Under the pieces are notes generated by a model. It had not been told where the DNA came from, did no database searches, and saw only the letters and a list, made by a program, of their open reading frames with translations. Made by a program: the position numbers and the translations under genes. From Escherichia coli (lineage in GTDB: Bacteria; Pseudomonadota; Gammaproteobacteria; Enterobacterales; Enterobacteriaceae), in the NCBI RefSeq assembly GCF_003334405.1, contig NZ_QOWM01000010.1: 64,000 bases of DNA. One strand, written 5' to 3'. Positions 1 through 39,268 of the stretch are shown in pieces; positions within the stretch are counted from its first letter, which is position 1; every line of letters starts with the position of its first letter.

Positions 1-78
1 TTGACCGCCTGCGCCTGTGCTCGAAAACGCCAGAATGTACTGGCTGTACGCAATAATTGCAACTGCGATTGTTGTGCT

Positions 79-456
79 TCAGTGCTTTTCTTGCTTTTCA
101 TCAATCACCGGAATTCGCCACATATAGAAAAGCAAACAGGCGAGAATTACCAGCAACATGATGCGCACCCATGGCATCTGGACGAACCACAGAGAAATGG
201 CAAACGTGAGCAAAATAAGCAAAATCGCCCGCGGTTTGACGCCGCGCGGCATCGCATGATGTTTCTGCCAGAAACGTAGATAGCTGCCAAACCATGAGCG
301 GTACAGCAACCAGGCGTGAAAGCGCGGGGAAGAACGGGCAAAGCACCAGGCCGCCAGCAGGATAAACGGCGTCGTCGGTAATACCGGTAATACCACGCCC
401 AGCGTACCCAGCACTACCGCCAGCCAGCCAATGATGATTAAAATGATTCGTTGCAT
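79..456 (-). CDS. ybaN: Inner membrane protein YbaN (DUF454 family)
   Basis: 125-aa ORF, hydrophobic with several predicted TM helices; length and sequence match YbaN as I remember it; sits next to priC as in E. coli. Confidence 0.9.
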   Translation of the reverse strand: MQRIILIIIGWLAVVLGTLGVVLPVLPTTPFILLAAWCFARSSPRFHAWLLYRSWFGSYLRFWQKHHAMPRGVKPRAILLILLTFAISLWFVQMPWVRIMLLVILACLLFYMWRIPVIDEKQEKH

Positions 457-525
457 ATTGAGTGTTGTCAGCTTACAGAGTGGCTACTTTAGCATAACAA
501 TTATCATTTTCATTGAGGTCTTATC

Positions 526-1053
526 GTGAAAACCGCCCTGCTGCTGGAAAAACTGGAAGGACAGCTCGCTACGCTGCGTCAGCGTTGTGCCCCGGTGTCA
601 CAGTTCGCCACGCTAAGTGCTCGTTTCGACAGGCATCTTTTTCAGACTCGTGCGACAACACTACAGGCTTGTCTCGACGAGGCGGGCGATAATCTGGCTG
701 CGCTTCGTCATGCAGTTGAGCAGCAACAGCTGCCGCAAGTGGCCTGGCTGGCGGAACATCTGGCGGCACAACTGGAAGCCATCGCGCGTGAAGCCTCCGC
801 CTGGTCATTGCGCGAGTGGGACAGTGCACCACCGAAAATTGCCCGCTGGCAGCGTAAACGTATTCAGCATCAGGATTTTGAGCGGCGGCTACGTGAGATG
901 GTTGCCGAACGCAGAGCCCGTCTGGCGCGGGTGACCGATCTCGTGGAACAGCAAACGCTGCATCGTGAAGTGGAAGCCTATGAAGCGCGCCTGGCACGCT
1001 GCCGCCATGCGCTGGAAAAAATCGAAAACAGGTTAGCGCGTTTAACCCGCTAG
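526..1053 (+). CDS. priC: Primosomal replication protein N-double-prime (PriC)
   Basis: 175-aa ORF, Arg/Leu-rich helical protein; matches PriC in length and sequence; conserved position. Confidence 0.9.
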
Positions 1054-1066
1054 CAATGGAGAGAAT

Positions 1067-1228
1067 ATGTCACTGGAAAATGCCCCTGACGATGTCAAAC
1101 TGGCTGTCGATTTGATTGTGCTGCTGGAGGAAAATCAGATCCCTGCCAGTACCGTGCTGCGCGCGCTGGATATTGTAAAGCGTGATTATGAAAAGAAATT
1201 AACGCGCGATGATGAGGCGGAAAAGTGA
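1067..1228 (+). CDS. ybaM: Small protein YbaM (DUF2496)
   Basis: 53-codon ORF ([26 protein letters not shown]...) starting 13 nt after the priC stop; read directly from the sequence, below the size cut-off of the ORF track. Confidence 0.8.
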
Positions 1229-1280
1229 GAAATAAATGGGGTCGCTAAATGTCCCCTAAGGTTGCGGGCAAACGCAAAAC

Positions 1281-1380
1281 TGCCTGATGCGCTACGCTTA
1301 TCAGGCCTACACCGCTCCTGCAATATATTGAATTCTTGCGGTTTCGTAGGCCGGATAAGGCGGTCACGCCGCATCCGGCA
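1281..1380. repeat. BIME: two REP palindromic units in inverted orientation
   Basis: tgcctgatgcgctacgcttatcaggcctac ... gtaggccggataaggcggtcacgccgcatccggca; canonical REP sequences between convergent ybaM and mscK. Confidence 0.85.
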
Positions 1381-1439
1381 TGAACAACGCGCACTTTGTT
1401 AGCAATCTCGGGGCAACTAAATGTTGCCCCCTTTCGTTT

Positions 1440-4400
1440 TTACCCTACCGCTGGCGTCGGGTCATCGCCTTTGTAGTCGCGTTTTACTTCCGTCACCTCA
1501 TCGCCCTTCTCGTTGTGCAGATGCACTTCAAGCTGGTTAAAGGCAATGTTGATGTCGTTTTCACGGCACAGCTGATCGATAGTACGGTTCAGCTCATCGA
1601 CAGTACGACTACGGTCACGCAGTTCACGCACATACAGACGCAGCTCATGATCCAACGTGCTGGCACCAAATGCCGTAAAGAAGACTTCCGGCATTGGTTC
1701 GTGCATCACCCTTGGGTGCTCAGTCGCCGCCTTCAGTAACACTTTACGCACTTTTTCCAGATCGGAGCCATAGGCCACGCCGAGACGGATCACCAGACGC
1801 GTAGTAGTGTCAGTCAACGACCAGTTGATCAGACGCTCGGTAACAAACGCTTTGTTCGGGATGATCACTTCTTTGCGATCGAAATCGGTAATCGTTGTCG
1901 CACGAATACGGATCTTACTTACCGTCCCCGAGAAGCTACCAATGGTTACCGTATCGCCAATACGCACCGGACGTTCGAATAGAATGATCAAACCGGAGAC
2001 GAAGTTACCGAAAATTTCTTGTAAACCAAAACCAAGACCTACGGATAATGCTGCGGCCAGCCACTGGAGTTTATCCCAAGAGACGCCCAGCGATCCGAAC
2101 ACCGTCATCGCACCAACAGCAATAATGATGTAGTTAAGGATGGTAGTAATGGCATACGACGCGCCCTGGCGCATATTCAGTCGCGAGAGCACCAGCACTT
2201 CCAGTAAACCAGGCAGGTTGCGAATCAACGCCCAGGCCACCATTGAGGCGATAATCGCAAACAACAGACTGCCCATGGTGACGTTTTTCACCACCGCAGC
2301 GCCAGCTTCAGTGCCGTTGTAATGCCAGAGCGTGATGCTGTCGAGATAGCTGAACACGGTGATCAAATCGGACCAAATTGCCCAGAACATGACACCGAAC
2401 AGCGCAAACATCAGCAACATGGTAATACGCAGCGTCTGCTGGTTAACTTGCTCCAGTGCAATGGTGGGTTCTTCCGGCGGTTCAGCACCTTCTGCGCCCT
2501 CTTTCACCAGATTCTGCCGACGCGCCAGCGCACGACGCCAGGCGATACGCCGCGCCGCTACGCTTAAGCCACGCAGTACCGTCTGGTACAGCAGGTTCCA
2601 GATGATCACCAGATAAACGGTTTCAATCCAGCGTCCTGCCAGACGCAGCGTAGTGTAGAAGTAGCCTGTAGCAGTCAGCACCATCAGCGCAATCGGGATT
2701 ATCGACAGCACGGTAATGGTGACCAGTCGCATGGTGTGCGACTCTTTATCACGCCAGCTTTCGCGGCACATCGGCCATACCAGGAAGGCAATCAGCAGCA
2801 GGTTGAAGAAAATCATCGCTTGCCCCAGCACATCATCCATCAGATGCAGCGGGGAAAGTTCTGCCACCACAGACCAGAAATGGATAGGCAGCAATGCGAG
2901 ACTGATGCGGACAATTTGCCGACGCCAGTGGCTGGTCTGCTGTTCCGGCATGCCGAAGTGACGTACGGCAACGCCGTTTTTCTCCAGTACCTTCCAGCAC
3001 AGGCCAAACACCAGCCAGAATATCGCCAGTTTTTTGCTGAACGACCATAGCAGTTCGCTGATGTTGAGCTGCATGGTCAACAGAATCAGGCCAACCGCGA
3101 GAATAATCAGGCACACCGGCAGCGCACGGATCAGGTCGATAAGGATCGCTTTTGGTGTGTTGAGCTGGCTGTCGTTACGCAGGGAACCCACAGCGGAAGC
3201 CAGTTTTTGTTGATACGCTTTCAGCCAGCCCAGACGCCAGTGGATCAGCCCGGCAATCAACAGCAGCGGCAAACCAGCGAGGAAAGCGATAAAAACGGCG
3301 GGCCAGGCTTTTTGCCAGTTCACCGTGATTTTCATCGACTTAAATTCATCTTTCAGGCTTTGCGGGAACGCTTTGATCCAGTCCCAGTCCATTGGACGGT
3401 TACTGTTCACCCAAAAGATTTGCTGAGTCAGGATGGATTTCAGGTTTTTCGACACACTCATTAACTGCTGCTGGTTGATTTGCAGGTTAATGGCCATCAT
3501 CAGCTGGTTACCCAACTGTTTGTTGAGTTGATCCAGCAATTCGCGACGCATATCAACCACTTGCAATAACGCATCGTGAACTTCGCTGTTGACTTCGTTG
3601 GTGTGACCTTCTTCCAGTTTGTTGACGAACGCATCGCTCTGGAAGAGTGCATCACGCTGCTGGTTAACTTCAAACTGTTCGAGACGCAAATCCGCGATGC
3701 GGTTGGTCATGTTTTCCAGTTCATCCGCCGAGGGCAGCGTTTGTTGTTGCTGGTAAAGGATACGAGACAACAGCAGGCTGCCCTTCAGGACGGCAATCTG
3801 CTCTTTAATATTGCGTTCCGATTGCAGCGCCCGCTCCAGCCAGTTTTTGACTTTAATGTTTTGCTGCATCAACTGATTACCGTTTTCAGTCGCGGTAATC
3901 AGACGCTGACTTAACTGCTGGTTAATTTCCAGTTCCTGCTTCACCAGCGGATTAGCCTGAATACGCGCGGCTTCATCCGGGGAGACGGCTTCCTGCGCCG
4001 TTTTTTCGGTTAAAGTCAGGCGCTTGCTGTTTACCGCTTCTTGCAACAGTTGTAACTGGTGCTCCAGACGAGCGCTGTTCGCCGTCACGTAATCACGTTG
4101 CTTTTGCAAGGTATCCTGCAAGACGGTGTTCCCTTCCAGGCTTTTACGCTGCTGGTCAATCTCCGCATTCAGCAACGCCTGCTGGGCCTGCATTAACACT
4201 TTCTGGCTGGGACGTAAGGCTGTCTCGCCGACATCAGTCCCATCCAGACGACTGCGAATTTGTTGCAGCTGCTGCGAAGCGTTATACATCGCATTTTGCA
4301 CGCGTTCGGGCTGCGTCTGTAACGAAACCAGCTGGCTGTTATAAGACGCCAGATCGTTTTGTGCGTTTTGCAAATCGTCCAGCGCCTGGGCAACGCGAGT

Positions 4401-4802
4401 TTCCAGCTGGCGCAACGACAGCGTGCTCAGAATTTTGCGCGTTTCTTCGTCGTTATCGACATCGCTAAGTGCTGTTAACGCCGCGGTCGCCTGGCGCATT
4501 TTTTCCGGCGCTTCAGCGACTTTTTGCCGTAGCTGAACTGTCTCTTCTTTTATGCGATCGATTTTATCGAGGGTGGCTAATGTATCTGTCAGATCCTGCT
4601 GCACCAGTTTGTCCTGAGCAGAAAGATCTTTTTGTTTATTTAGTGAGTCAAGTTGCGCCTGCAGGTCCGCTTTTGTCGGCAGATCACCATTCGATGACGC
4701 CCGCGCAAACGCCGTGTTCTGGCATAACAAGACAAAAACAAAAGCAATAAATGCTGAAAAAACAAAATGCCGTGATCGTTTGTAATACTGGAACATAGTC
4801 AT
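1440..4802 (-). CDS. mscK: Potassium-dependent mechanosensitive channel MscK (KefA)
   Basis: 1120-aa ORF with signal peptide, long coiled-coil periplasmic region, multiple TM helices and a C-terminal MscS-like domain. Confidence 0.95.
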   Translation of the reverse strand: MTMFQYYKRSRHFVFSAFIAFVFVLLCQNTAFARASSNGDLPTKADLQAQLDSLNKQKDLSAQDKLVQQDLTDTLATLDKIDRIKEETVQLRQKVAEAPEKMRQATAALTALSDVDNDEETRKILSTLSLRQLETRVAQALDDLQNAQNDLASYNSQLVSLQTQPERVQNAMYNASQQLQQIRSRLDGTDVGETALRPSQKVLMQAQQALLNAEIDQQRKSLEGNTVLQDTLQKQRDYVTANSARLEHQLQLLQEAVNSKRLTLTEKTAQEAVSPDEAARIQANPLVKQELEINQQLSQRLITATENGNQLMQQNIKVKNWLERALQSERNIKEQIAVLKGSLLLSRILYQQQQTLPSADELENMTNRIADLRLEQFEVNQQRDALFQSDAFVNKLEEGHTNEVNSEVHDALLQVVDMRRELLDQLNKQLGNQLMMAINLQINQQQLMSVSKNLKSILTQQIFWVNSNRPMDWDWIKAFPQSLKDEFKSMKITVNWQKAWPAVFIAFLAGLPLLLIAGLIHWRLGWLKAYQQKLASAVGSLRNDSQLNTPKAILIDLIRALPVCLIILAVGLILLTMQLNISELLWSFSKKLAIFWLVFGLCWKVLEKNGVAVRHFGMPEQQTSHWRRQIVRISLALLPIHFWSVVAELSPLHLMDDVLGQAMIFFNLLLIAFLVWPMCRESWRDKESHTMRLVTITVLSIIPIALMVLTATGYFYTTLRLAGRWIETVYLVIIWNLLYQTVLRGLSVAARRIAWRRALARRQNLVKEGAEGAEPPEEPTIALEQVNQQTLRITMLLMFALFGVMFWAIWSDLITVFSYLDSITLWHYNGTEAGAAVVKNVTMGSLLFAIIASMVAWALIRNLPGLLEVLVLSRLNMRQGASYAITTILNYIIIAVGAMTVFGSLGVSWDKLQWLAAALSVGLGFGLQEIFGNFVSGLIILFERPVRIGDTVTIGSFSGTVSKIRIRATTITDFDRKEVIIPNKAFVTERLINWSLTDTTTRLVIRLGVAYGSDLEKVRKVLLKAATEHPRVMHEPMPEVFFTAFGASTLDHELRLYVRELRDRSRTVDELNRTIDQLCRENDINIAFNQLEVHLHNEKGDEVTEVKRDYKGDDPTPAVG

Positions 4803-4929
4803 GATGAATGAAGGTTTCTGAACCTGAAGAACGACCTGAAAAAGTCAAACCGCAAGAATATCACGACGCAGTGAACCAGAATAGCAACGACGAAAATGTC
4901 CAGGAAAAATCCTGGAGTCAGATTCAGGG

Positions 4930-5577
4930 TTATTCGTTAGTGGCAGGATTACGAAGCGTGGGGCACAGGAGATACATCTCCAGTAAGATGGCAACGTAAT
5001 CGCGGGCTTCTTTTTTAAGATCAAAAGATTGCGGGGCAAAGAGCCAGTTTTCCATCAGGCCGGAAATATAGCCGCGCATAATAATTGCTGCGCGACGCGT
5101 CATTAAATCCGCAGGCAACATTTTCGCTTCAATACAATGTTTTAACGTTTGTTCTATACGGTCATAACTTTCCAGACAGAGATTACGTTGTGCCTGTTGC
5201 ACAACAGCCATTTCTCCGACAAATTCGCATTTGTGGAATATAATCTCCATCAATAATCGACGCCGTTCTTCTGTCACCGTGGATTCAAGAACATGAATTA
5301 ATATCTCTCTTAATACTGAGAGTGGATCGCCAGGGAATTTTGCCTGATACTCAAGCTCTAGTTCACCAATATTGGATTCTGACAGTTCCCAGATCTCACT
5401 GAACAAATCCGACTTGTCTTTAAAATGCCAGTAGATTGCACCGCGCGTAACGCCAGCTGCTTTTGCAATCTCGCCCAGCGAGGTGGATGATACCCCCTGC
5501 TGTGAGAAAAGACGTAGAGCCACATCGAGGATGTGTTGGCGCGTTTCTTGCGCTTCTTGTTTGGTTTTTCGTGCCAT
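4930..5577 (-). CDS. acrR: TetR-family repressor AcrR
   Basis: 215-aa ORF with N-terminal TetR helix-turn-helix; divergent from acrAB. Confidence 0.95.
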
Positions 5578-5605
5578 ATGTTCGTGAATTTACAGGCGTT
5601 AGATT

Positions 5606-5629
5606 TACATACATTTGTGAATGTATGTA
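5606..5629. promoter_or_regulatory. AcrR operator: 24-bp near-perfect inverted repeat in the acrR/acrA divergent promoter region
   Basis: tacatacatttgtgaatgtatgta seen directly; lies between the acrR start (5577) and the acrA start (5719). Confidence 0.8.
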
Positions 5630-5718
5630 CCATAGCACGACGATAATATAAACGCAGCAATGGGTTTATTAACTTTTGACCATTGACCAATTTGAAATCG
5701 GACACTCGAGGTTTACAT

Positions 5719-6912
5719 ATGAACAAAAACAGAGGGTTTACGCCTCTGGCGGTCGTTCTGATGCTCTCAGGCAGCTTAGCCCTAACAGGATGTGACGACA
5801 AACAGGCCCAACAAGGTGGCCAGCAGATGCCCGCCGTTGGCGTAGTAACAGTCAAAACTGAACCTCTGCAGATCACAACCGAGCTTCCGGGTCGCACCAG
5901 TGCCTACCGGATCGCAGAAGTTCGTCCTCAAGTTAGCGGGATTATCCTGAAGCGTAATTTCAAAGAAGGTAGCGACATCGAAGCAGGTGTCTCTCTCTAT
6001 CAGATTGATCCTGCGACCTATCAGGCGACATACGACAGTGCGAAAGGTGATCTGGCGAAAGCCCAGGCTGCAGCCAATATCGCGCAATTGACGGTGAATC
6101 GTTATCAGAAACTGCTCGGTACTCAGTACATCAGTAAGCAAGAGTACGATCAGGCTCTGGCTGATGCGCAACAGGCGAATGCTGCGGTAACTGCGGCGAA
6201 AGCTGCCGTTGAAACTGCGCGGATCAATCTGGCTTACACCAAAGTCACCTCTCCGATTAGCGGTCGCATTGGTAAGTCGAACGTGACGGAAGGCGCATTG
6301 GTACAGAACGGTCAGGCGACTGCGCTGGCAACCGTGCAGCAACTTGATCCGATCTACGTTGATGTGACCCAGTCCAGCAACGACTTCCTGCGCCTGAAAC
6401 AGGAACTGGCGAATGGCACGCTGAAACAAGAGAACGGCAAAGCCAAAGTGTCACTGATCACCAGTGACGGCATTAAGTTCCCGCAGGACGGTACGCTGGA
6501 ATTCTCTGACGTTACCGTTGATCAGACCACTGGGTCTATCACCCTACGCGCTATCTTCCCGAACCCGGATCACACTCTGCTGCCGGGTATGTTCGTGCGC
6601 GCACGTCTGGAAGAAGGGCTTAATCCAAACGCTATTTTAGTCCCGCAACAGGGCGTAACCCGTACGCCGCGTGGCGATGCCACCGTACTGGTAGTTGGCG
6701 CGGATGACAAAGTGGAAACCCGTCCGATCGTTGCAAGCCAGGCTATTGGCGATAAGTGGCTGGTGACAGAAGGTCTGAAAGCAGGCGATCGCGTAGTAAT
6801 AAGTGGGCTGCAGAAAGTGCGTCCTGGTGTCCAGGTAAAAGCACAAGAAGTTACCGCTGATAATAACCAGCAAGCCGCAAGCGGTGCTCAGCCTGAACAG
6901 TCCAAGTCTTAA
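5719..6912 (+). CDS. acrA: Multidrug efflux periplasmic adaptor AcrA
   Basis: ORF 5683..6912; start at internal ATG (MNKNRGFTPLAVVLMLSGSLALTGC lipoprotein signal with lipobox) giving 397 aa; membrane-fusion-protein family. Confidence 0.95.
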   Translation: MNKNRGFTPLAVVLMLSGSLALTGCDDKQAQQGGQQMPAVGVVTVKTEPLQITTELPGRTSAYRIAEVRPQVSGIILKRNFKEGSDIEAGVSLYQIDPATYQATYDSAKGDLAKAQAAANIAQLTVNRYQKLLGTQYISKQEYDQALADAQQANAAVTAAKAAVETARINLAYTKVTSPISGRIGKSNVTEGALVQNGQATALATVQQLDPIYVDVTQSSNDFLRLKQELANGTLKQENGKAKVSLITSDGIKFPQDGTLEFSDVTVDQTTGSITLRAIFPNPDHTLLPGMFVRARLEEGLNPNAILVPQQGVTRTPRGDATVLVVGADDKVETRPIVASQAIGDKWLVTEGLKAGDRVVISGLQKVRPGVQVKAQEVTADNNQQAASGAQPEQSKS

Positions 6913-6931
6913 CTTAAACAGGAGCCGTTAA

Positions 6932-10084
<3,153 letters not shown>

Positions 10085-10102
10085 TACAACGTGTAATCAC
10101 TA

Positions 10103-10127
10103 AGGCCGCGTAAGCGGCCTTTTTTAT
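10103..10127 (+). terminator. Rho-independent terminator downstream of acrB
   Basis: GC-rich hairpin aaggccgc-gtaa-gcggcctt followed by a T-tract (tttttat) immediately after the acrB stop. Confidence 0.75.
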
Positions 10128-10629
10128 GCATAACCTACGAACATTAAGGAGTAATTGAACCACCAACTCAGGATCTCATACGAAAACCAGTATTAACCAC
10201 GGATAAAATTCATAAAAAATACTGATTGTTAGTTAATTTATATTAAGTAGCGCTAATAGATTTAATAATCCATAATCATTTAGAGGCTATTCTTAATTAT
10301 TTGCGGTAATTCTTTATTCATTCCTCGGTTATTACGTCATATTCAGAGCAATCCTGGTATTAGTGTCACCAATTTCATCTGGCGATAATCCTGAAATGTT
10401 ATGAATAGTTCGAGCAAACTGCTTTTACCTGCTGCGGGTTAGTGCTAGTATGAAAAAGTGAGTCCTGTCCCGCTTCCTTCCTAATTGTAATTTTTCGTAA
10501 TAATGCGATGAAAACCTGCAAAGAGTGGCTTATAGTTAAGCTAACAAACGAGAGGGCAAGTCCAGGTCAGTAAGTTTTTTCCATCCCGAAAGGTGTCCGT
10601 TAGTTCAACCGCTAAGAAGGGGACGCGTT

Positions 10630-11004
10630 ATGGATGAATACTCACCCAAAAGACATGATATCGCACAGCTTAAGTTTCTCTGTGAAACCCTGTATCATGA
10701 CTGCCTTGCAAACCTTGAAGAAAGCAATCATGGCTGGGTAAACGACCCAACCTCGGCGATCAACCTCCAGTTGAATGAACTGATTGAGCATATTGCGACC
10801 TTCGCACTTAATTACAAAATTAAGTATAATGAAGACAATAAGCTCATTGAGCAGATCGACGAATATCTGGATGACACCTTTATGTTGTTCAGTAGTTATG
10901 GTATTAATATGCAGGATCTTCAGAAATGGCGGAAGTCAGGTAATCGACTATTCCGTTGTTTTGTCAATGCGACGAAAGAGAATCCTGCGAGTTTATCTTG
11001 TTAG
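10630..11004 (+). CDS. tomB: Hha toxicity modulator TomB (YbaJ)
   Basis: 124-aa ORF ([25 protein letters not shown]...) directly upstream of hha. Confidence 0.92.
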
Positions 11005-11029
11005 AATTATTACAACCATAGGTAGAAGT

Positions 11030-11248
11030 ATGTCCGAAAAACCTTTAACGAAAACCGATTATTTAATGCGTTTACGTCGTTGCCAGACAATTGACACGCT
11101 GGAGCGTGTTATCGAGAAAAATAAATACGAATTATCAGATAATGAACTGGCGGTATTTTACTCAGCCGCAGATCACCGCCTCGCCGAATTGACCATGAAT
11201 AAACTGTACGACAAGATCCCTTCCTCAGTATGGAAATTTATTCGCTAA
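11030..11248 (+). CDS. hha: Haemolysin expression modulator Hha (H-NS co-regulator)
   Basis: 72-aa protein [35 protein letters not shown]... starting at an internal ATG of ORF 10784..11248; 25 nt downstream of tomB. Confidence 0.93.
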
Positions 11249-11419
11249 TAAATAATTCGCTTTCGGAGCTATAACCGGCTGTTTATTAAGAATTTTATAC
11301 TTTTTCGCCATGAAGACATACCCTATGTGATCTTTATCACACAGATGTAATGGGAACGTTCTCTTCACTGACTTTTCGTCTTACTGTGTTGCCGCATTTT
11401 CAGCAACCGGAGGTCAGTA

Positions 11420-11971
11420 ATGAGCACAGAAAAAGAAAAGATGATTGCTGGTGAGTTGTATCGCTCGGCAGATGAGACGTTATCTCGCGATCGCCTGCGC
11501 GCTCGTCAGCTTATTCACCGATACAATCATTCCCTGGCGGAAGAGCACACATTACGCCAGCAAATTCTCGCTGATCTATTCGGTCAGGTGACAGAGGCTT
11601 ATATTGAGCCAACGTTTCGCTGTGACTATGGCTATAACATTTTTCTCGGTAATAATTTTTTCGCCAACTTCGATTGCGTGATGCTTGATGTCTGCCCTAT
11701 TCGCATCGGTGATAACTGTATGTTGGCACCAGGCGTTCATATCTACACGGCAACACATCCCATCGACCCTGTAGCACGTAATAGCGGTGCTGAACTGGGG
11801 AAACCCGTCACCATCGGTAATAACGTCTGGATTGGCGGACGCGCGGTCATTAACCCTGGTGTGACCATTGGTGATAACGTCGTGGTAGCCTCAGGTGCAG
11901 TTGTCACAAAAGATGTCCCGGACAACGTTGTCGTGGGCGGTAATCCAGCCAGAATAATTAAAAAATTGTAA
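11420..11971 (+). CDS. maa: Maltose O-acetyltransferase (hexapeptide-repeat acyltransferase)
   Basis: 183-aa ORF with left-handed beta-helix hexapeptide repeats ([40 protein letters not shown]). Confidence 0.93.
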
Positions 11972-12086
11972 TCGGTTTTTCGCAACTGTTATGCAAAATT
12001 GTGGTAGATCTGTTACTTCCCCTCTACTATTCCCACGTTAAAATAGGGTGTTCCCTGGAAAGTTGCAGATACCACGAAGGCAAACG

Positions 12087-12557
12087 ATGACCGAAATACA
12101 ACGCCTGCTGACCGAAACGATTGAGTCTCTGAATACCCGCGAAAAACGCGACAACAAACCCCGCTTTAGTATCAGTTTTATCCGTAAACATCCGGGGCTG
12201 TTTATCGGTATGTACGTTGCTTTTTTTGCCACCCTGGCGGTGATGTTGCAGTCCGAAACGCTGTCAGGCTCTGTCTGGCTACTGGTTGTATTATTTATCC
12301 TGCTTAATGGTTTCTTCTTTTTCGATGTCTACCCACGCTACCGCTATGAAGATATCGACGTGCTGGATTTCCGCGTTTGCTATAACGGCGAATGGTACAA
12401 CACGCGCTTTGTACCTGCCGCGCTGGTTGAAGCCATCTTGAACTCTCCGCGTGTCGCGGATGTTCATAAGGAACAACTGCAAAAAATGATCGTCCGTAAA
12501 GGTGAACTGTCTTTTTACGATATTTTTACCCTCGCTCGCGCCGAATCAACATCTTAA
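12087..12557 (+). CDS. ylaC: Inner membrane protein YlaC (DUF1449)
   Basis: ORF 12048..12557; internal start MTEIQRLL gives 156 aa; two hydrophobic helices. Confidence 0.85.
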
Positions 12558-12714
12558 GTTAGGGTTACATACCAGGCGTAAAGCTCTGCGCCTGGTCAAA
12601 TGACAATGATCGTTTCCACCCATCACTTCATGAAATACCAGCTCTACCTCCTTATCTCCAGCCAGCCTTTTTCCACAATCAGATATACTTTCCCTACACT
12701 GTGTTAATAAGGAT

Positions 12715-14271
12715 ATGCTGGTGAGAACACGACATCTGGTCGGCCTTATTTCGGGAGTACTGATTCTTTCAGTATTGCTGCCTGTCGGCTTAAGCATCTG
12801 GCTGGCCCATCAGCAGGTAGAAACATCGTTTATTGAAGAGCTGGATACCTATTCCTCCCGCGTCGCTATTCGAGCCAATAAGGTGGCGACACAAGGGAAA
12901 GATGCGCTGCAGGAGCTGGAAAGATGGCAAGGCGCTGCCTGTAGCGAAGCCCATCTCATGGAAATGCGTCGGGTATCTTACAGTTATCGCTATATTCAGG
13001 AAGTGGCTTATATCGATAACAACGTTCCCCAGTGTTCGTCTCTGGAGCATGAAAGTCCGCCCGATACCTTCCCCGAGCCAGGTAAAATTTCGAAAGATGG
13101 TTATCGTGTCTGGTTAACATCGCATAACGATTTAGGCATTATCCGTTACATGGTCGCCATGGGAACGGCACATTATGTCGTCATGATCGACCCCGCTTCC
13201 TTTATTGATGTCATTCCCTATAGCTCATGGCAAATTGATGCCGCCATTATTGGCAATGCCCATAACGTTGTCATAACCAGCAGCGATGAAATTGCTCAGG
13301 GAATTATTACCAGGCTACAAAAAACACCCGGTGAGCATATCGAAAATAATGGAATCATTTACGATATCCTGCCCTTACCGGAGATGAATATTTCGATCAT
13401 CACATGGGCTTCAACGAAAATGTTGCAGAAAGGCTGGCATCGGCAAGTCTTTATTTGGTTACCGCTCGGGTTGGTGATTGGCCTGCTGGCAGCGATGTTT
13501 GTGCTGCGTATTTTGCGCCGTATTCAGTCACCGCATCATCGGCTGCAGGATGCTATCGAAAATCGTGATATTTGCGTGCACTATCAGCCGATTGTCTCCT
13601 TAGCCAATGGCAAAATTGTCGGTGCTGAGGCACTGGCGCGCTGGCCGCAGACAGACGGTAGTTGGTTGTCACCAGATAGTTTTATTCCGCTGGCACAGCA
13701 AACGGGCCTTTCTGAGCCATTGACGCTACTGATTATAAGAAGCGTCTTTGAAGATATGGGCGACTGGCTGCGTCAGCATCCACAGCAGCATATTTCGATC
13801 AATCTTGAATCCCCCGTGCTCACCTCGGAAAAAATCCCGCAATTGCTGCGTGACATGATCAATCACTATCAGGTTAATCCCAGACAGATCGCGCTTGAAC
13901 TCACTGAACGCGAGTTTGCCGATCCGAAAACCAGCGCCCCGATAATTTCTCGCTACCGGGAGGCGGGCCATGAAATTTATCTTGATGATTTTGGTACGGG
14001 GTATTCAAGTTTAAGTTATTTACAGGATCTGGATGTCGACATTCTGAAGATCGATAAATCTTTCGTTGATGCGCTGGAATATAAAAATGTCACGCCGCAT
14101 ATCATCGAAATGGCAAAAACACTGAAACTGAAAATGGTAGCGGAGGGAATCGAAACCAGTAAACAAGAAGAGTGGTTACGCCAGCATGGCGTGCACTACG
14201 GTCAGGGCTGGCTCTACAGCAAGGCATTACCGAAAGAAGATTTCTTACGCTGGGCCGAGCAACATTTGTGA
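12715..14271 (+). CDS. pdeB: Cyclic-di-GMP phosphodiesterase PdeB (YlaB), CSS-motif sensor plus EAL domain
   Basis: 518-aa ORF with N-terminal TM, periplasmic domain, second TM and C-terminal EAL domain (EALxR ... DDFGTGYSS); the true start may be the GTG at 12721. Confidence 0.9.
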   Translation: MLVRTRHLVGLISGVLILSVLLPVGLSIWLAHQQVETSFIEELDTYSSRVAIRANKVATQGKDALQELERWQGAACSEAHLMEMRRVSYSYRYIQEVAYIDNNVPQCSSLEHESPPDTFPEPGKISKDGYRVWLTSHNDLGIIRYMVAMGTAHYVVMIDPASFIDVIPYSSWQIDAAIIGNAHNVVITSSDEIAQGIITRLQKTPGEHIENNGIIYDILPLPEMNISIITWASTKMLQKGWHRQVFIWLPLGLVIGLLAAMFVLRILRRIQSPHHRLQDAIENRDICVHYQPIVSLANGKIVGAEALARWPQTDGSWLSPDSFIPLAQQTGLSEPLTLLIIRSVFEDMGDWLRQHPQQHISINLESPVLTSEKIPQLLRDMINHYQVNPRQIALELTEREFADPKTSAPIISRYREAGHEIYLDDFGTGYSSLSYLQDLDVDILKIDKSFVDALEYKNVTPHIIEMAKTLKLKMVAEGIETSKQEEWLRQHGVHYGQGWLYSKALPKEDFLRWAEQHL

Positions 14272-14312
14272 ATTTTTGGGCTGACGGCACGCCGCACAGC
14301 CCGTCACGCTAC

Positions 14313-14666
14313 CTATTCGTCGATGATTGACTCGAATCCGCCATAGATCATTCGCTTGCCGTCAAACGGCATGGACTCGCCGAACTCTTTCATCCGTGGG
14401 TCCGACATCATCTTTTGATTAGCAGCGTCGCGGACCTCTTTTGAAGGGTATTCAATCCAGCTAAAGACAACCTCTTCATTCTCTTCCGCTTTCACCGCCA
14501 TACGAAAATCGGTCACTTTGCCATCCGGTACATCGCTGGCCCAGCATTCGACAATACGAAGCGCGCCAAACTCTTTAAACAATGGCGCAGCCTTAGCGGC
14601 CATTTCCCGATAGGCATCCTTTTTATCGGCAGGAACGGCAACCACAAAACCATCAACATACTTCAT
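14313..14666 (-). CDS. ybaA: DUF1428 family protein YbaA
   Basis: 117-aa ORF (MKYVDGFVVAVPADKKDAYREMAAKAAPLFKEFGA...). Confidence 0.88.
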   Translation of the reverse strand: MKYVDGFVVAVPADKKDAYREMAAKAAPLFKEFGALRIVECWASDVPDGKVTDFRMAVKAEENEEVVFSWIEYPSKEVRDAANQKMMSDPRMKEFGESMPFDGKRMIYGGFESIIDE

Positions 14667-14776
14667 CAGACATACCTCCGAAGCGTACTGCGCAGCCAGA
14701 CAATTCTTGCGACGTCAGTTGTGGTTAAAGTTTAGCCATGTTGGGATTTTTTGACGAAACGGTGGGAGGCAGAAAT

Positions 14777-14890
14777 GGGTGGGGGCCCTGCCAGCTACAT
14801 CCCGGCACACGCGTCATCTGCCTTGGCTGCTTCCTTCCGGACCTGACCTGGTAAACAGAGTAGCGTTGCGGGAGAACCAACAGAGCCCCC
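14777..14890 (-). ncRNA. ffs: 4.5S RNA (signal recognition particle RNA), ffs
   Basis: The reverse complement of 14777..14890 reads GGGGGCTCTGTTGGTTCTCCCGCAACGC...GGAAGGAAGCAGCCAAGGCAGATGACGCG...GGCAGGGCCCCCACCC, the 114-nt E. coli 4.5S RNA including the conserved SRP domain IV motif. Confidence 0.95.
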
Positions 14891-14966
14891 ATTGAGAGCG
14901 TTGAGAACCAACGCGCAGGCGCATTATCACTGCTGCCCCGGCTAATTGCAACCCATCGCGTGCCAG

Positions 14967-15356
14967 ATGCTGGTTTCTTGCGCAATGCGACTTCACTCGG
15001 GCGTTTTTCCAGATTATGCTGAAAAATTACCTCAGGAAGAAAAGATGGAAAAAGAAGATTCATTTCCCCAACGCGTCTGGCAAATCGTCGCCGCTATTCC
15101 CGAAGGCTATGTCACCACTTACGGTGATGTGGCGAAACTGGCGGGATCGCCCCGCGCCGCGCGCCAGGTGGGCGGTGTGTTAAAGCGTCTCCCTGAAGGC
15201 AGCACCTTACCCTGGCACCGGGTGGTTAATCGCCACGGCACAATTTCGCTAACCGGACCGGATTTACAGCGTCAGCGACAGGCATTACTGGCAGAAGGTG
15301 TGATGGTATCGGGAAGCGGGCAAATCGACTTGCAGCGTTATCGCTGGAACTACTAA
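14967..15356 (+). CDS. atl: DNA base-flipping protein Atl (YbaZ), alkyltransferase-like
   Basis: ORF 14946..15356; internal start MLVSCAMRLHSG gives 129 aa; MGMT-like helix-turn-helix region without the catalytic Cys. Confidence 0.85.
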   Translation: MLVSCAMRLHSGVFPDYAEKLPQEEKMEKEDSFPQRVWQIVAAIPEGYVTTYGDVAKLAGSPRAARQVGGVLKRLPEGSTLPWHRVVNRHGTISLTGPDLQRQRQALLAEGVMVSGSGQIDLQRYRWNY

Positions 15357-15377
15357 CCCTCTCCGGGCGGAGAGGGT
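15357..15377. terminator. Bidirectional hairpin between convergent atl and ybaY
   Basis: ccctctccg-ggc-ggagaggg perfect stem-loop directly after the atl stop and before the ybaY stop. Confidence 0.6.
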
Positions 15378-15386
15378 TAACGTCGC

Positions 15387-15959
15387 TTAATATTGCGTAG
15401 GAGCTGGAACTGCCGAAGACGGATTCACCTGAGTTGGTGAAGTCGAAGGTACGGTAGTCGTTGCGCCACCGCTGGCCTGAACCGGCACGGCGGTTTGCTG
15501 TACCGGCACCAATGTCAGGTCGGCTTTAGTTCCGCCCTGGTTGATCACCGGCTGAACGGTATCGGTGATAAATACCAGTTTGTCATTCACGGTAATCGCC
15601 GCACTCAACAGAATACGCGCGTTCGGCTGAACATCTGCCGGGTTAAATGGCAGAACAAAGCTGAATGGTGACTGTTTACCTTCAGTACGCACCGCTTTCT
15701 GCGCCAGCACTTTTGACGGTGCATCGGCTAACGACGCGTCAGAAAGTGTCACGGTCAGCACAGCATCAGGCGGCAGTGCGACTTTCTGACGGATCCAGAC
15801 GGTACCGGAGACATTCGGTTGCTGGATAGCTGGTTGTTGTGTTGCTGAAATAGACGTATTTGCAGCCGGTGCTGGCGTCTGAATATCCGCGCTTTTATCT
15901 GCGCAAGCCGCCAACGCAATCGCAACCGCTAAACCACTGGCCATGTGCACGAGTTTCAT
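15387..15959 (-). CDS. ybaY: Lipoprotein YbaY
   Basis: 190-aa ORF with lipoprotein signal (MKLVHMASGLAVAIALAAC) and Pro/Thr/Ala-rich low-complexity regions. Confidence 0.88.
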   Translation of the reverse strand: MKLVHMASGLAVAIALAACADKSADIQTPAPAANTSISATQQPAIQQPNVSGTVWIRQKVALPPDAVLTVTLSDASLADAPSKVLAQKAVRTEGKQSPFSFVLPFNPADVQPNARILLSAAITVNDKLVFITDTVQPVINQGGTKADLTLVPVQQTAVPVQASGGATTTVPSTSPTQVNPSSAVPAPTQY

Positions 15960-22955: not shown

Positions 22956-23107
22956 AGCCCTTCCACAGAGAATTTTTTTCTCTTTTAATTTTATTTTAAA
23001 GGTGAAATCACGACAATTTATTCTGTGCGGTTTAAACACCACGGCACAAAATGACAAATTCAACGCAAAAAAAACCGGGCAATTGCCCGGTGCTGGAAGG
23101 GATCTCG

Positions 23108-30095: not shown

Positions 30096-32450
30096 CTATT
30101 TTGCAGTCACAACCTGCATACCAGACGGTTCATTTTGCAGCGCCAGAGTCAGAACTTCCTCAATGCGCTTCACAGGATGAATGTCCAGATCGGCAATTAC
30201 GTTGTCAGGAATCTCTTCCAGATCGCGTTTATTTTCGAACGGAATTAGCACTGTTTTAATCCCGCCGCGATGCGCTGCCAGGAGTTTTTCTTTCAAACCA
30301 CCGATCGGCAGTACCTGACCACGCAGAGTGATCTCACCGGTCATTGCCACATCGGCACGAACCGGGTTACCGGTCAGGCAAGAAACCAGCGCGGTGCACA
30401 TAGCAATACCGGCACTCGGACCATCTTTCGGCGTCGCACCTTCCGGTACGTGGACGTGGATGTCACGTTTTTCGTAAAAATCAGGGTTGATCCCCAGTTT
30501 TTCCGCACGCGCACGAACCACCGTTAACGCCGCCTGAATGGACTCCTGCATCACTTCGCCGAGCGAACCGGTATAGGTCAGTTTGCCTTTACCCGGAACA
30601 CATGCGGTTTCAATGGTCAGCAAGTCACCGCCCACTTCCGTCCACGCCAGACCGGTTACCTGACCGACACGGTTTTCGTTATCCGCGCGACCATAGTCGA
30701 AACGCTGAACACCGAGATAGTCATGCAGGTTATCGCCGTTAATTTCGATATGTTTTAATGACTTATCGAGCAGTAACTGCTTAACCGCTTTGCGACACAG
30801 TTTGGAGATTTCACGCTCCAGACCACGCACGCCCGCCTCACGGGTGTAGTAACGAATAATGCCGATAATGGCGCTATCGTCGACGGTCAGCTCACCTTTT
30901 TTCAGTGCATTACGTTCAATCTGCTTCGGCAGCAGGTGACGTTTGGCGATGTTCAGTTTTTCATCTTCGGTATAACCGGAGAGGCGAATCACTTCCATAC
31001 GATCCAGCAGCGGTGCCGGAATGTTCATGGAGTTCGACGTCGCGACAAACATCACGTCGCTGAGATCGTAATCCACTTCCAGGTAGTGGTCGCTGAACGC
31101 TACGTTCTGCTCTGGATCCAGCACTTCAAGCAGTGCAGAGGCCGGATCGCCACGCATGTCAGAAGACATTTTGTCGATCTCATCGAGCAGGAACAGCGGG
31201 TTTTTCACGCCCACTTTCGCCATTTTCTGGATCAGTTTACCCGGCATAGAACCGATGTAAGTACGGCGGTGACCACGGATTTCCGCTTCATCACGCACGC
31301 CGCCCAGCGCCATACGGACATATTTACGCCCGGTGGCTTTGGCAATGGACTGACCAAGAGAGGTTTTACCTACCCCCGGCGGCCCTACCAGGCAGAGGAT
31401 CGGTCCCTTGATTTTGTTGACACGGCTTTGAACCGCAAGATACTCAAGGATTCGATCTTTCACGCGCTCCAGACCATAATGGTCGGTATCAAGGATTTCC
31501 TGCGCCTGACGCAGGTCTTTTTTGACCTTGCTACGCGCATTCCACGGCACCTGTACCATCCAGTCGATATAACCACGCACTACGGTCGCTTCTGCCGACA
31601 TCGGAGACATCATTTTCAGCTTCTGCAACTCTGCTTCCGCTTTCTCTTTTGCCTCTTTCGGCATCTTCGCCGCGTCGATTTTGCGCTTCAGGGCTTCGTT
31701 TTCGTCCGGCGCGTCGTCCATTTCACCGAGTTCTTTCTGAATAGCTTTCATTTGCTCGTTCAGATAGTACTCACGCTGGGATTTCTCCATCTGCTTTTTA
31801 ACGCGGTTGCGAATGCGTTTCTCAACCTGCAGCAGATCGATTTCCGATTCCATCATTGCCATCAGATATTCCAGACGTTCGTTAACGTCGGACATCTCCA
31901 GAACAGACTGTTTGTCAGCCAGTTTCAGCGGCATATGTGCAGCAATGGTATCCGCCAGACGCGCCGGATCGTCGATGCTATTCAGCGACGTCAGCACTTC
32001 TGGTGGGATTTTTTTGTTCAGCTTGATGTAGCCTTCGAACTGGCTGATTGCAGTACGCACCAGCACTTCCTGTTCCCGCTCATCAATGGTCGGCGACTCC
32101 AGATACTCCGCCTTCGCAGAAAAGTGTTCGCCATTGTCAGAGAGCGCAGAAATACGCGCGCGCTGTAACCCCTCGACCAGCACTTTGACGGTGCCGTCAG
32201 GCAGTTTCAGCATCTGCAATATAGAGGCCACGGTCCCGACGGTGAAAAGATCGTTTACACCCGGCTCATCCGTTGAAGCTTCTTTCTGCGCGACCAGCAT
32301 AATTTTTTTATCATGGTCCATCGCCGCTTCCAGACAACGGATAGATTTTTCCCGCCCGACAAATAAGGGGATGACCATGTGCGGATAAACCACCACATCG
32401 CGCAGCGGCAATACGGGGATTTCAATGCGTTCAGAACGCTCAGGATTCAT
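30096..32450 (-). CDS. lon: ATP-dependent Lon protease
   Basis: ORF 30096..32495; start at [33 protein letters not shown] gives 784 aa; Walker [10 protein letters not shown] and the catalytic Ser motif PKDGPSAG. Confidence 0.97.
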
Positions 32451-32637
32451 AGAGCTCTCTCTTAGTTTAATTTCCGCCAGGTAATCAGATGACACGACTG
32501 TGCTTCACGCCATCTATTAACATGTACGTCAGTATATGGGGATGTTTCCCCCACATTCAACGCCGAGAATAGAGGAAAAATTAAAGGGGAGATAAAATCC
32601 CCCCTTTTTGGTTAACTAATTGTATGGGAATGGTTAA

Positions 32638-34906: not shown

Positions 34907-36214
<1,308 letters not shown>

Positions 36215-37792: not shown

Positions 37793-39268
37793 ATGTCCAG
37801 TCAATATTTACGTATTTTTCAACAGCCGCGTTCAGCCATATTGCTGATCCTGGGTTTTGCTTCCGGGCTACCGCTCGCCCTGACATCCGGTACCTTACAG
37901 GCCTGGATGACGGTCGAGAATATTGATCTCAAAACCATTGGTTTCTTCTCTCTGGTAGGCCAGGCTTACGTTTTTAAATTCCTCTGGTCACCGCTGATGG
38001 ACCGCTACACGCCTCCATTTTTTGGGCGGCGACGCGGTTGGCTGCTCGCCACGCAAATCCTGTTATTAGTCGCCATTGCGGCGATGGGTTTTCTCGAACC
38101 AGGCACCCAACTCCGCTGGATGGCGGCGCTGGCGGTGGTGATCGCTTTTTGCTCTGCCTCCCAGGATATTGTCTTCGATGCGTGGAAAACCGATGTGCTC
38201 CCGGCAGAAGAACGTGGTGCGGGCGCGGCAATCAGCGTTCTGGGTTACCGTTTAGGGATGCTGGTTTCCGGCGGCCTAGCCCTGTGGCTGGCAGATAAAT
38301 GGCTGGGCTGGCAGGGCATGTACTGGTTGATGGCGGCGCTGTTGATCCCCTGTATTATCGCGACGTTGCTTGCACCAGAACCGACCGACACCATTCCTGT
38401 GCCAAAAACGCTGGAACAAGCGGTTGTTGCACCTCTGCGAGATTTCTTTGGTCGCAATAATGCCTGGCTTATTTTGCTTCTTATCGTGCTGTATAAGCTG
38501 GGCGACGCATTCGCCATGAGCCTGACAACCACGTTTTTGATTCGCGGCGTCGGGTTTGATGCGGGTGAAGTAGGCGTGGTTAACAAAACGCTTGGCTTAC
38601 TAGCGACCATTGTTGGCGCATTGTACGGTGGGATTTTGATGCAGCGCCTGTCACTGTTCCGGGCACTGCTGATTTTCGGCATTTTACAAGGTGCGTCTAA
38701 CGCCGGTTACTGGCTGCTGTCGATTACTGATAAGCATCTCTACAGCATGGGCGCAGCCGTCTTTTTCGAAAACCTCTGTGGCGGGATGGGCACATCAGCC
38801 TTTGTCGCGCTGTTAATGACGCTATGTAATAAGTCATTTTCCGCTACTCAATTTGCCCTGCTCTCAGCGCTTTCTGCTGTAGGGCGAGTTTATGTCGGCC
38901 CCGTGGCGGGTTGGTTTGTTGAAGCACACGGCTGGTCGACATTCTATCTATTCTCCGTCGCCGCTGCCGTACCAGGGCTTATTTTGCTGCTGGTTTGCCG
39001 CCAGACGCTTGAATATACACGAGTAAATGACAACTTTATCTCCCGTACCGCATATCCGGCAGGTTATGCCTTTGCCATGTGGACACTGGCGGCGGGCGTC
39101 AGCCTGTTGGCCGTGTGGTTACTGCTATTGACGATGGACGCGCTGGATTTGACGCACTTCTCTTTCCTGCCTGCTCTGCTGGAAGTCGGGGTTTTAGTCG
39201 CCCTTTCTGGCGTCGTGCTTGGTGGTTTGCTGGATTATCTGGCGCTACGAAAAACGCATCTGACGTAA
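37793..39268 (+). CDS. ampG: Anhydromuropeptide permease AmpG (MFS)
   Basis: 491-aa ORF with multiple TM helices, MFS family. Confidence 0.95.
   Translation: MSSQYLRIFQQPRSAILLILGFASGLPLALTSGTLQAWMTVENIDLKTIGFFSLVGQAYVFKFLWSPLMDRYTPPFFGRRRGWLLATQILLLVAIAAMGFLEPGTQLRWMAALAVVIAFCSASQDIVFDAWKTDVLPAEERGAGAAISVLGYRLGMLVSGGLALWLADKWLGWQGMYWLMAALLIPCIIATLLAPEPTDTIPVPKTLEQAVVAPLRDFFGRNNAWLILLLIVLYKLGDAFAMSLTTTFLIRGVGFDAGEVGVVNKTLGLLATIVGALYGGILMQRLSLFRALLIFGILQGASNAGYWLLSITDKHLYSMGAAVFFENLCGGMGTSAFVALLMTLCNKSFSATQFALLSALSAVGRVYVGPVAGWFVEAHGWSTFYLFSVAAAVPGLILLLVCRQTLEYTRVNDNFISRTAYPAGYAFAMWTLAAGVSLLAVWLLLLTMDALDLTHFSFLPALLEVGVLVALSGVVLGGLLDYLALRKTHLT

Follow-up and report, generated by a model that had tools for sequence, protein, structure and literature searches.

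The acrR-acrAB control region and its match to K-12

The DNA analyzed here (hereafter "the window") is a 64-kb stretch, and positions 5578..5718 are exactly the 141-bp gap between the ATG of acrR (5577, minus strand) and the ATG of acrA (5719). The genes and features found in and around this gap are as follows:

4930..5577, minus strand: acrR, from its open reading frame and translation; identical to MG1655 b0464 and PDB 2QOP; AcrR equivalog with Pfam domains
5558..5577, minus strand: mar/sox/rob box, a perfect consensus match, in backward orientation relative to acrAB
5578..5603, no strand: spacer between the box and the -35, poorly conserved (columns mostly 4-90% in 82 distinct Enterobacterales sequences)
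5604..5609, plus strand: predicted acrAB -35 hexamer TTTACA (consensus scan); conservation is 89-100% at 5604-5606, which the search pattern does not cover
5606..5629, no strand: AcrR (and EnvR) operator, the exact published 24-bp site, with 10-nt arms and a TGTG center
5628..5633, plus strand: predicted acrAB -10 hexamer TACCAT (consensus scan); 5629-5633 are 80-100% conserved
5639..5640, plus strand: inferred acrAB transcription start, 6-7 nt past the -10, which fits a RamA site at about -71.5 and GpA priming
5643..5672, minus strand: weak candidate acrR promoters TTAATA-16-TATATT and TTAATA-18-TATTAT (consensus scan)
5651..5667, no strand: conserved block AACGCAGCAATGGGTTT, with 82-99% column conservation in 82 distinct Enterobacterales sequences
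5680..5718, plus strand: conserved acrA leader with a GGA (5700-5702) and the Shine-Dalgarno GAGG (5708-5711), mostly 83-100% conserved
5719..6912, plus strand: acrA, periplasmic adaptor (NCBIfam AcrA equivalog, 885 bits against a 765-bit cut-off)
6935..10084, plus strand: acrB, RND permease (NCBIfam AcrB equivalog, 2422 bits against a 2150-bit cut-off)

Window positions 1..11338 align as the reverse complement of MG1655 NC_000913.3 491337..480000 with 0 mismatches. The operator, acrR, the promoter, the leader, acrA and acrB are all base-identical to E. coli K-12 MG1655, as is the whole mscK-acrR-acrAB-tomB-hha segment, and no difference of any kind is found in 1..15649. Over the full 64 kb, identity is 99.958%, with 21 substitutions and one 6-nt gap that all fall from 15650 on. 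These differences led us to reject the possibility that the window is MG1655 itself; its source is a close K-12 relative. A query of 861 nt made of acrR plus the gap has matches in 5424 of the 5426 complete E. coli genomes, with 100% identity in several K-12 strains.

That the region is the canonical, unmutated divergent control region of acrR and the acrAB efflux operon seems to us close to certain. A control region of this kind is already known and well studied.

The AcrR operator

The 24-mer tacatacatttgtgaatgtatgta is found at 5606..5629, between the divergent acrR and acrA genes. The arms of the operator TACATACATTTGTGAATGTATGTA (5606-5615 and 5620-5629) form a perfect 10-nt inverted repeat around a 4-nt center, with the layout TACATACATT-TGTG-AATGTATGTA. 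Identification of this repeat as the known AcrR operator, proposed in the initial annotation, is confirmed by an exact match to the published sequence, and the operator is indeed intact, being base-identical to that of MG1655. The original source of the AcrR 24-bp site is reportedly the work of Su et al. in 2007. The 24-mer of the window agrees letter for letter with the AcrR-binding site that PMC9769551 and PMC10597343 give for the acrAB promoter; two 10-bp inverted repeats with a 4-bp spacer are described in the latter study, where a dimer-of-dimers binding mode is proposed. Salmonella EnvR binds the same palindrome, and mutation of the palindrome abolishes binding (PMC9780535).

When the half-site pattern was searched with up to 3 mismatches, a single occurrence was found in 64 kb, and the number expected from 100 dinucleotide-preserving shuffles was 0.00. 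Perfect inverted repeats with 10-nt arms and a spacer of 0-10 nt occur at only 7 distinct places in the window. A 40-nt query centered on the operator finds a match of at least 99% in 5382 of 5426 E. coli genomes.

Conservation beyond E. coli was examined by scanning one genome per bacterial species with the pattern ACATACATTNNNNAATGTATGT. At least 120 loci were found, and 120 were listed; by our own calculation, chance would produce about 4 matches to the 18-base palindromic pattern in the 298 Gb searched. In 107 of the 120 listed loci, the start of an AcrR homologue is found no more than 130 nt away from the palindrome, and 104 also have a divergent AcrA homologue; the other 13 lack a nearby full-length AcrR start. 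As the loci were chosen by the operator pattern, conservation of the 18 pattern positions is circular, and only that of the flanks, the box and the leader is unbiased. The flanking T (5606) and A (5629), which lie outside the pattern, are 100% conserved in the 82 distinct Enterobacterales sequences among the listed loci. Nearly all listed Enterobacterales loci have the operator 29-31 nt from the acrR ATG, and the operator of Yersinia enterocolitica is likewise located at -52 to -29 (PMC4403819). The center of the operator varies by species (TGTG, TATG and CACA are examples).

Exact half-sites between divergent AcrR-like and AcrA-like genes are also detected in Aeromonas, in many Burkholderiales (for example Acidovorax, Comamonas, Polaromonas and Ottowia) and in Silvimonas. 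The repressor at these loci is only 33-45% identical overall to AcrR; identity is 63% in the N-terminal DNA-binding domain (71% in the helix-turn-helix) and 26% in the ligand-binding domain.

One might argue, given the AT-richness of the palindrome and the presence of other short inverted repeats in the window, that it arose by chance or is a purely structural repeat (a hairpin or a terminator) without operator function. We consider this exceedingly improbable in view of the null shuffling expectation, the fixed spacing to the acrR ATG across Enterobacterales, the linkage to acrR and acrA homologues in 104-107 of the 120 listed loci (those of Aeromonas and Burkholderiales included) and the published binding data (PMC10597343, PMC9780535). 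In addition, the palindrome is absent among the terminator-like sites returned by a consensus scan. The reading as an AcrR operator is the one retained below.

The acrAB promoter

A consensus scan of 5400-5850 detected a single sigma-70-like promoter on the plus strand, TTTACA-18-TACCAT, with 9 of 12 matches to the consensus. Positions 5634-5637, past the -10, are conserved in the 82 distinct Enterobacterales sequences, as are the hexamers. From the predicted -10 and the dinucleotide GA at 5639-5640, we infer that acrAB transcription starts at 5639/5640. Such a start would put the center of the mar/sox/rob box at about -72 and that of the operator at about -22.

The operator overlaps this predicted core promoter, with one end within the -35 hexamer and the other within the -10 hexamer. 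Judging from its position, bound AcrR should thus block RNA polymerase.

A mar/sox/rob box inside acrR

A mar/sox/rob box, ATGGCACGAAAAACCAAACA, is located at 5558..5577 on the minus strand and coincides with acrR codons 1-7. It has 0 mismatches to the 20-bp asymmetric consensus AYNGCACNNWNNRYYAAAYN and is the sole perfect match in 64 kb, where 0.028 would be expected. No other site with up to 3 mismatches was found in 5480-5760, and none on either strand within the gap itself (5578-5718). ATAGCAC, at 5632-5638, was discarded as a candidate upon reading of the sequence: it fits the first half of the consensus only and fails in the second half.

The initial annotation had left the mar/sox/rob box unplaced by eye. 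The consensus search places it just outside the interval then considered, and it escaped notice because it occupies the start of the acrR coding sequence (its first 20 bases) and not the gap. As a consequence, scans confined to the gap miss the box. The location agrees with previous work: the acrAB marbox has been placed in the first 20 nt of acrR, and keeping only the first 21 nt of the gene restores activator-dependent resistance (PMC11642870). Binding of MarA, SoxS and Rob to the box, and the need of the box for activation, have also been described (PMC11642870, PMC11633057).

On the acrAB-sense strand, the box reads TTT-GGTTTTT-CGTG and conforms to the TTT-7N-CGTG motif. The cryo-EM structure of a class I complex on the Klebsiella pneumoniae acrA promoter relied on this motif to position RamA, at about -71.5 (PMC8811837). 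In that study, GpA served as the initiating primer, and positions were numbered from the start that EcoCyc annotates for E. coli. If the predicted start is correct, a box about 72 bp upstream and in backward orientation would be consistent with class I activator geometry.

A 44-nt box query finds a match of at least 99% in 5377 of 5426 E. coli genomes. The operator and box sequences are each present in about 99% of the 5426 complete E. coli genomes.

Codon usage over the box

Codons over the box were compared in the 83 Enterobacterales species among the listed loci, whose AcrR proteins are 55-98% identical to that of E. coli. The comparison is unbiased since loci were picked on the operator and not on the box. 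Codons 2-6 of acrR are GCA, CGA, AAA, ACC (96%) and AAA, and each is effectively the only codon used in the 83 species; the residues encoded are 4-, 6-, 2-, 4- and 2-fold degenerate, respectively. Equally invariant residues located later in the protein (A9, T12, R13, A20, G28, V29, L34, A38, A41, V43, R45, G46 and A47) use all 4-6 synonymous codons, and the frequency of the commonest codon is just 0.29-0.57. The freeze stops at the box boundary, and codons 7-10 vary freely. Codons 2-6 also vary in 22 distant taxa that harbor the operator and encode a similar MAR(K/R)TK peptide. Altogether, the comparison indicates that selection acts on the nucleotide sequence itself over acrR codons 2-6, beyond coding need. 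The operator loci of Aeromonas, Burkholderiales and Silvimonas lack the frozen marbox codons.

Frozen codons admit an alternative explanation, namely that translation initiation of acrR demands an A-rich, unstructured start and that no activator box is involved. N-terminal codon bias is common, and box position 12 (the wobble position of Lys4) is invariant in spite of being free under both the coding constraint and the degenerate consensus. A pure translation-initiation explanation fits poorly, however, with an invariance that ends precisely at the box boundary and with distant taxa that encode the MAR(K/R)TK peptide with varied codons; it accounts neither for the perfect match to the consensus nor for the sufficiency of the first 21 nt of acrR to restore activator-dependent resistance (PMC11642870). 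We consider it very unlikely, and favor an activator box as the cause of the freeze.

The acrA leader and a conserved block

Between the putative start and the acrA ATG, conservation is uneven: the leader proper (5680..5718) is conserved, and the stretch 5668-5679 is variable, like the spacer at 5578-5603. When 70 distinct sequences are folded to a consensus, the GGA region (5700-5702) and the Shine-Dalgarno region are base-paired. In Salmonella, CsrA binds GGA motifs in the acrAB leader and opens a structure that occludes the Shine-Dalgarno sequence (PMC5727465). The predicted GGA/Shine-Dalgarno pairing would be compatible with the Salmonella CsrA leader model. No Rfam family was found in 5400-5900 at E<=1. 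A leader hairpin at 5648-5669 was discarded: it is present in the single-sequence fold and lost in the consensus fold.

Another hairpin, CAGAGG-GTTTACG-CCTCTG (5730-5748), lies within acrA codons 4-10 and persists when 70 Enterobacterales sequences are folded to a consensus. It was flagged by the terminator scan on the minus strand, and may be a by-product of the conserved signal-peptide coding sequence.

The conserved block AACGCAGCAATGGGTTT would correspond to about +12 to +28 in the acrA leader, to a portion of the acrR promoter, or to both. An imperfect inverted repeat (5648-5656 / 5661-5669) overlaps the block, and by eye its minus strand contains TTGCTG (5660-5655), a possible acrR -35. 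The block could conceivably be a further regulatory element in addition to the operator, the box and the hexamers, an idea that we regard as unlikely. It may represent the -35/UP region of acrR in a face-to-face promoter pair, or else a factor binding site or a leader RNA element.

With regard to the acrR promoter, the TTAATA-16/18 candidates were discarded because their -35 is not conserved (columns 5668-5672 reach only 4-71%). A weaker minus-strand pair, TTGCTG-17-TGCTAT, was noticed by eye and lies on conserved columns.

The AcrR protein and acrR loss-of-function alleles

The acrR open reading frame is full length (215 codons) and has no premature stop, as previously noted, and is identical to those of MG1655 and 2QOP; the protein agrees at 215 of 215 residues with the crystallized wild-type AcrR (PDB 2QOP/3BCG). 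It scores 419.3 bits on the NCBIfam AcrR equivalog NF007949, whose cut-off is 271 bits. Pfam domains TetR_N (residues 16-62) and TetR_C_2 (residues 84-202) are detected; an N-terminal TetR helix-turn-helix combined with a MAATS-type C-terminal domain assigns the protein to the TetR family.

Alignment of acrR and the control region with the reference, suggested by the initial annotation as a check, yielded zero differences in the operator, the box and acrR. The translation contains neither truncation nor insertion, and residues L34 and R45 are both unchanged. R45C is known from the literature as an inactivating change. Inactivation of AcrR by L34Q has been reported (PMC11642870).

A comparison with acrR loss-of-function alleles, also suggested at that stage, showed that IS1 and deletion alleles differ from the acrR gene of the window. 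In the complete E. coli genome NZ_AP022105.1, a natural loss-of-function allele has the gene split by an IS1 insertion. In NZ_CP173466.1, from an E. coli urine isolate, an internal deletion has left an N-terminal stub; made up of the initial 153 nt of acrR, it still includes the box codons and lies beside an intact acrA. In practice, deleting acrR together with codons 1-7 and deleting it with those codons left in place are not equivalent knock-outs (PMC11642870).

Regulation at the strain level

Among the multidrug efflux pumps intrinsic to E. coli, AcrAB-TolC is the main one, and mutations in acrR or its operator are a route to clinical resistance. A wild-type call for the locus is useful in genotype-to-phenotype work and adds no new biology. 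The additions made here are the placement of the box, the comparative demonstration of nucleotide-level selection within coding sequence, and one conserved block.

The initial annotation had gone further, suggesting wild-type efflux regulation rather than a derepressed allele. For the local elements and for lon (30096-32450), the only global factor visible in the window, this stands: all are identical to MG1655. As a claim on the whole strain it goes too far, since marR, soxR and rob lie outside the window. A strain with a wild-type local region might have its efflux derepressed through marR, soxR, rob or other regulators elsewhere, in which case "wild-type efflux regulation" would overreach; the window does differ from MG1655 beyond 15650 (21 SNPs and a 6-nt deletion). 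We regard such derepression as quite unlikely: acrR, the operator, the box, the leader, acrAB and lon are all reference-identical, and nothing points to a resistant background. Our reading is a wild-type acrR-acrAB locus, with the claim confined to the elements that the window contains.

Other observations in the window

Differences from MG1655 span 15650-60730. Eleven of the 21 substitutions cluster in ampG (37924-38404), in what looks like a small recombination patch. An in-frame 6-nt difference is found at 60146, near the 3' end of tsx, where GGCAACGGCAAC of MG1655 is reduced in the window to a single GGCAAC, with loss of one Gly-Asn. In natural phylogroup-A-like isolates, 37500-61500 finds a match displayed as 100.0%, over a span that exceeds the query by 6 nt; for this reason, the best-matching genomes appear to keep both copies of the tsx repeat.

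Two other marbox matches, each with one mismatch, were detected. The first, ACGGCACAAAATGACAAAT, lies at 23041-23059 (plus strand) in the cof-decR gap, 86-104 nt upstream of the decR (ybaO) ATG (22955, minus strand) and in backward orientation. From its sequence and position, a Rob/MarA box for decR-mdlAB seems plausible; Rob binding to an mdlA marbox is mentioned in PMC2453137. The second, at 35443-35461 (minus strand), lies inside tig and is probably due to chance.

The only matches above the Rfam gathering threshold in the window are sraA (32522-32617, plus strand), beside lon, and the 4.5S SRP RNA gene ffs (14786-14882, minus strand).

A model for the region and comparison with known systems

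A model for the region can be proposed in which identities, positions, chance expectations and conservation come from this analysis, and binding and regulatory effects from the literature. Its elements can be summarized as follows:

(i). AcrR, a TetR-family repressor, would bind the palindrome at 5606..5629, as a dimer of dimers if the mode proposed in the literature applies. Covering the acrAB promoter from the -35 to the -10, the bound repressor should exclude RNA polymerase.

(ii). The palindrome is located 29-52 nt ahead of the acrR ATG, and any plausible acrR start either coincides with it or precedes it. AcrR should thus repress acrR too, a geometry suggestive of autorepression. According to the literature, ligands in the C-terminal domain would release AcrR.

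(iii). Independently, a monomer of MarA, SoxS or Rob would occupy the 20-bp box at 5558..5577, in acrR codons 1-7. Centered some 72 bp upstream of the putative acrAB start, the bound protein would act as a class I activator and recruit RNA polymerase.

(iv). The conserved leader (5680..5718) may then modulate translation; in Salmonella, it is a target of CsrA.

The E. coli K-12 acrR-acrAB region is the closest known system: it has the same 24-bp site and the same box position, and acrR, the gap, acrA and acrB are base-identical. MG1655 and the window show no differences in the control region and diverge only further along, by the 21 SNPs and the 6-nt deletion.

With the acrA promoters of K. 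pneumoniae and Salmonella, the region shares the TTT-7N-CGTG box (at about -72 from the predicted start), the arms of the palindrome and a conserved leader, and the acrR-acrA gap of Salmonella is also 141 bp. E. coli is not known to have a ramA gene, so that MarA, SoxS and Rob would act instead. The CsrA-bound acrAB leader is a Salmonella feature (PMC5727465), to which the E. coli leader may be likened by its conserved GGA and its fold.

More distant parallels are provided by TtgR/ttgABC of Pseudomonas putida and MtrR/mtrCDE of Neisseria, in which TetR-family repressors control RND pumps, as AcrR does. Both systems share with acrR-acrAB a divergent repressor-pump layout and an operator over the pump promoter. 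TtgR and MtrR are the closest solved relatives of AcrR after Salmonella AcrR (E values of 1e-44 to 1e-32). They are, however, different proteins that fall well below the AcrR equivalog cut-off, and the MtrR model yields 167 bits against a cut-off of 280 bits.
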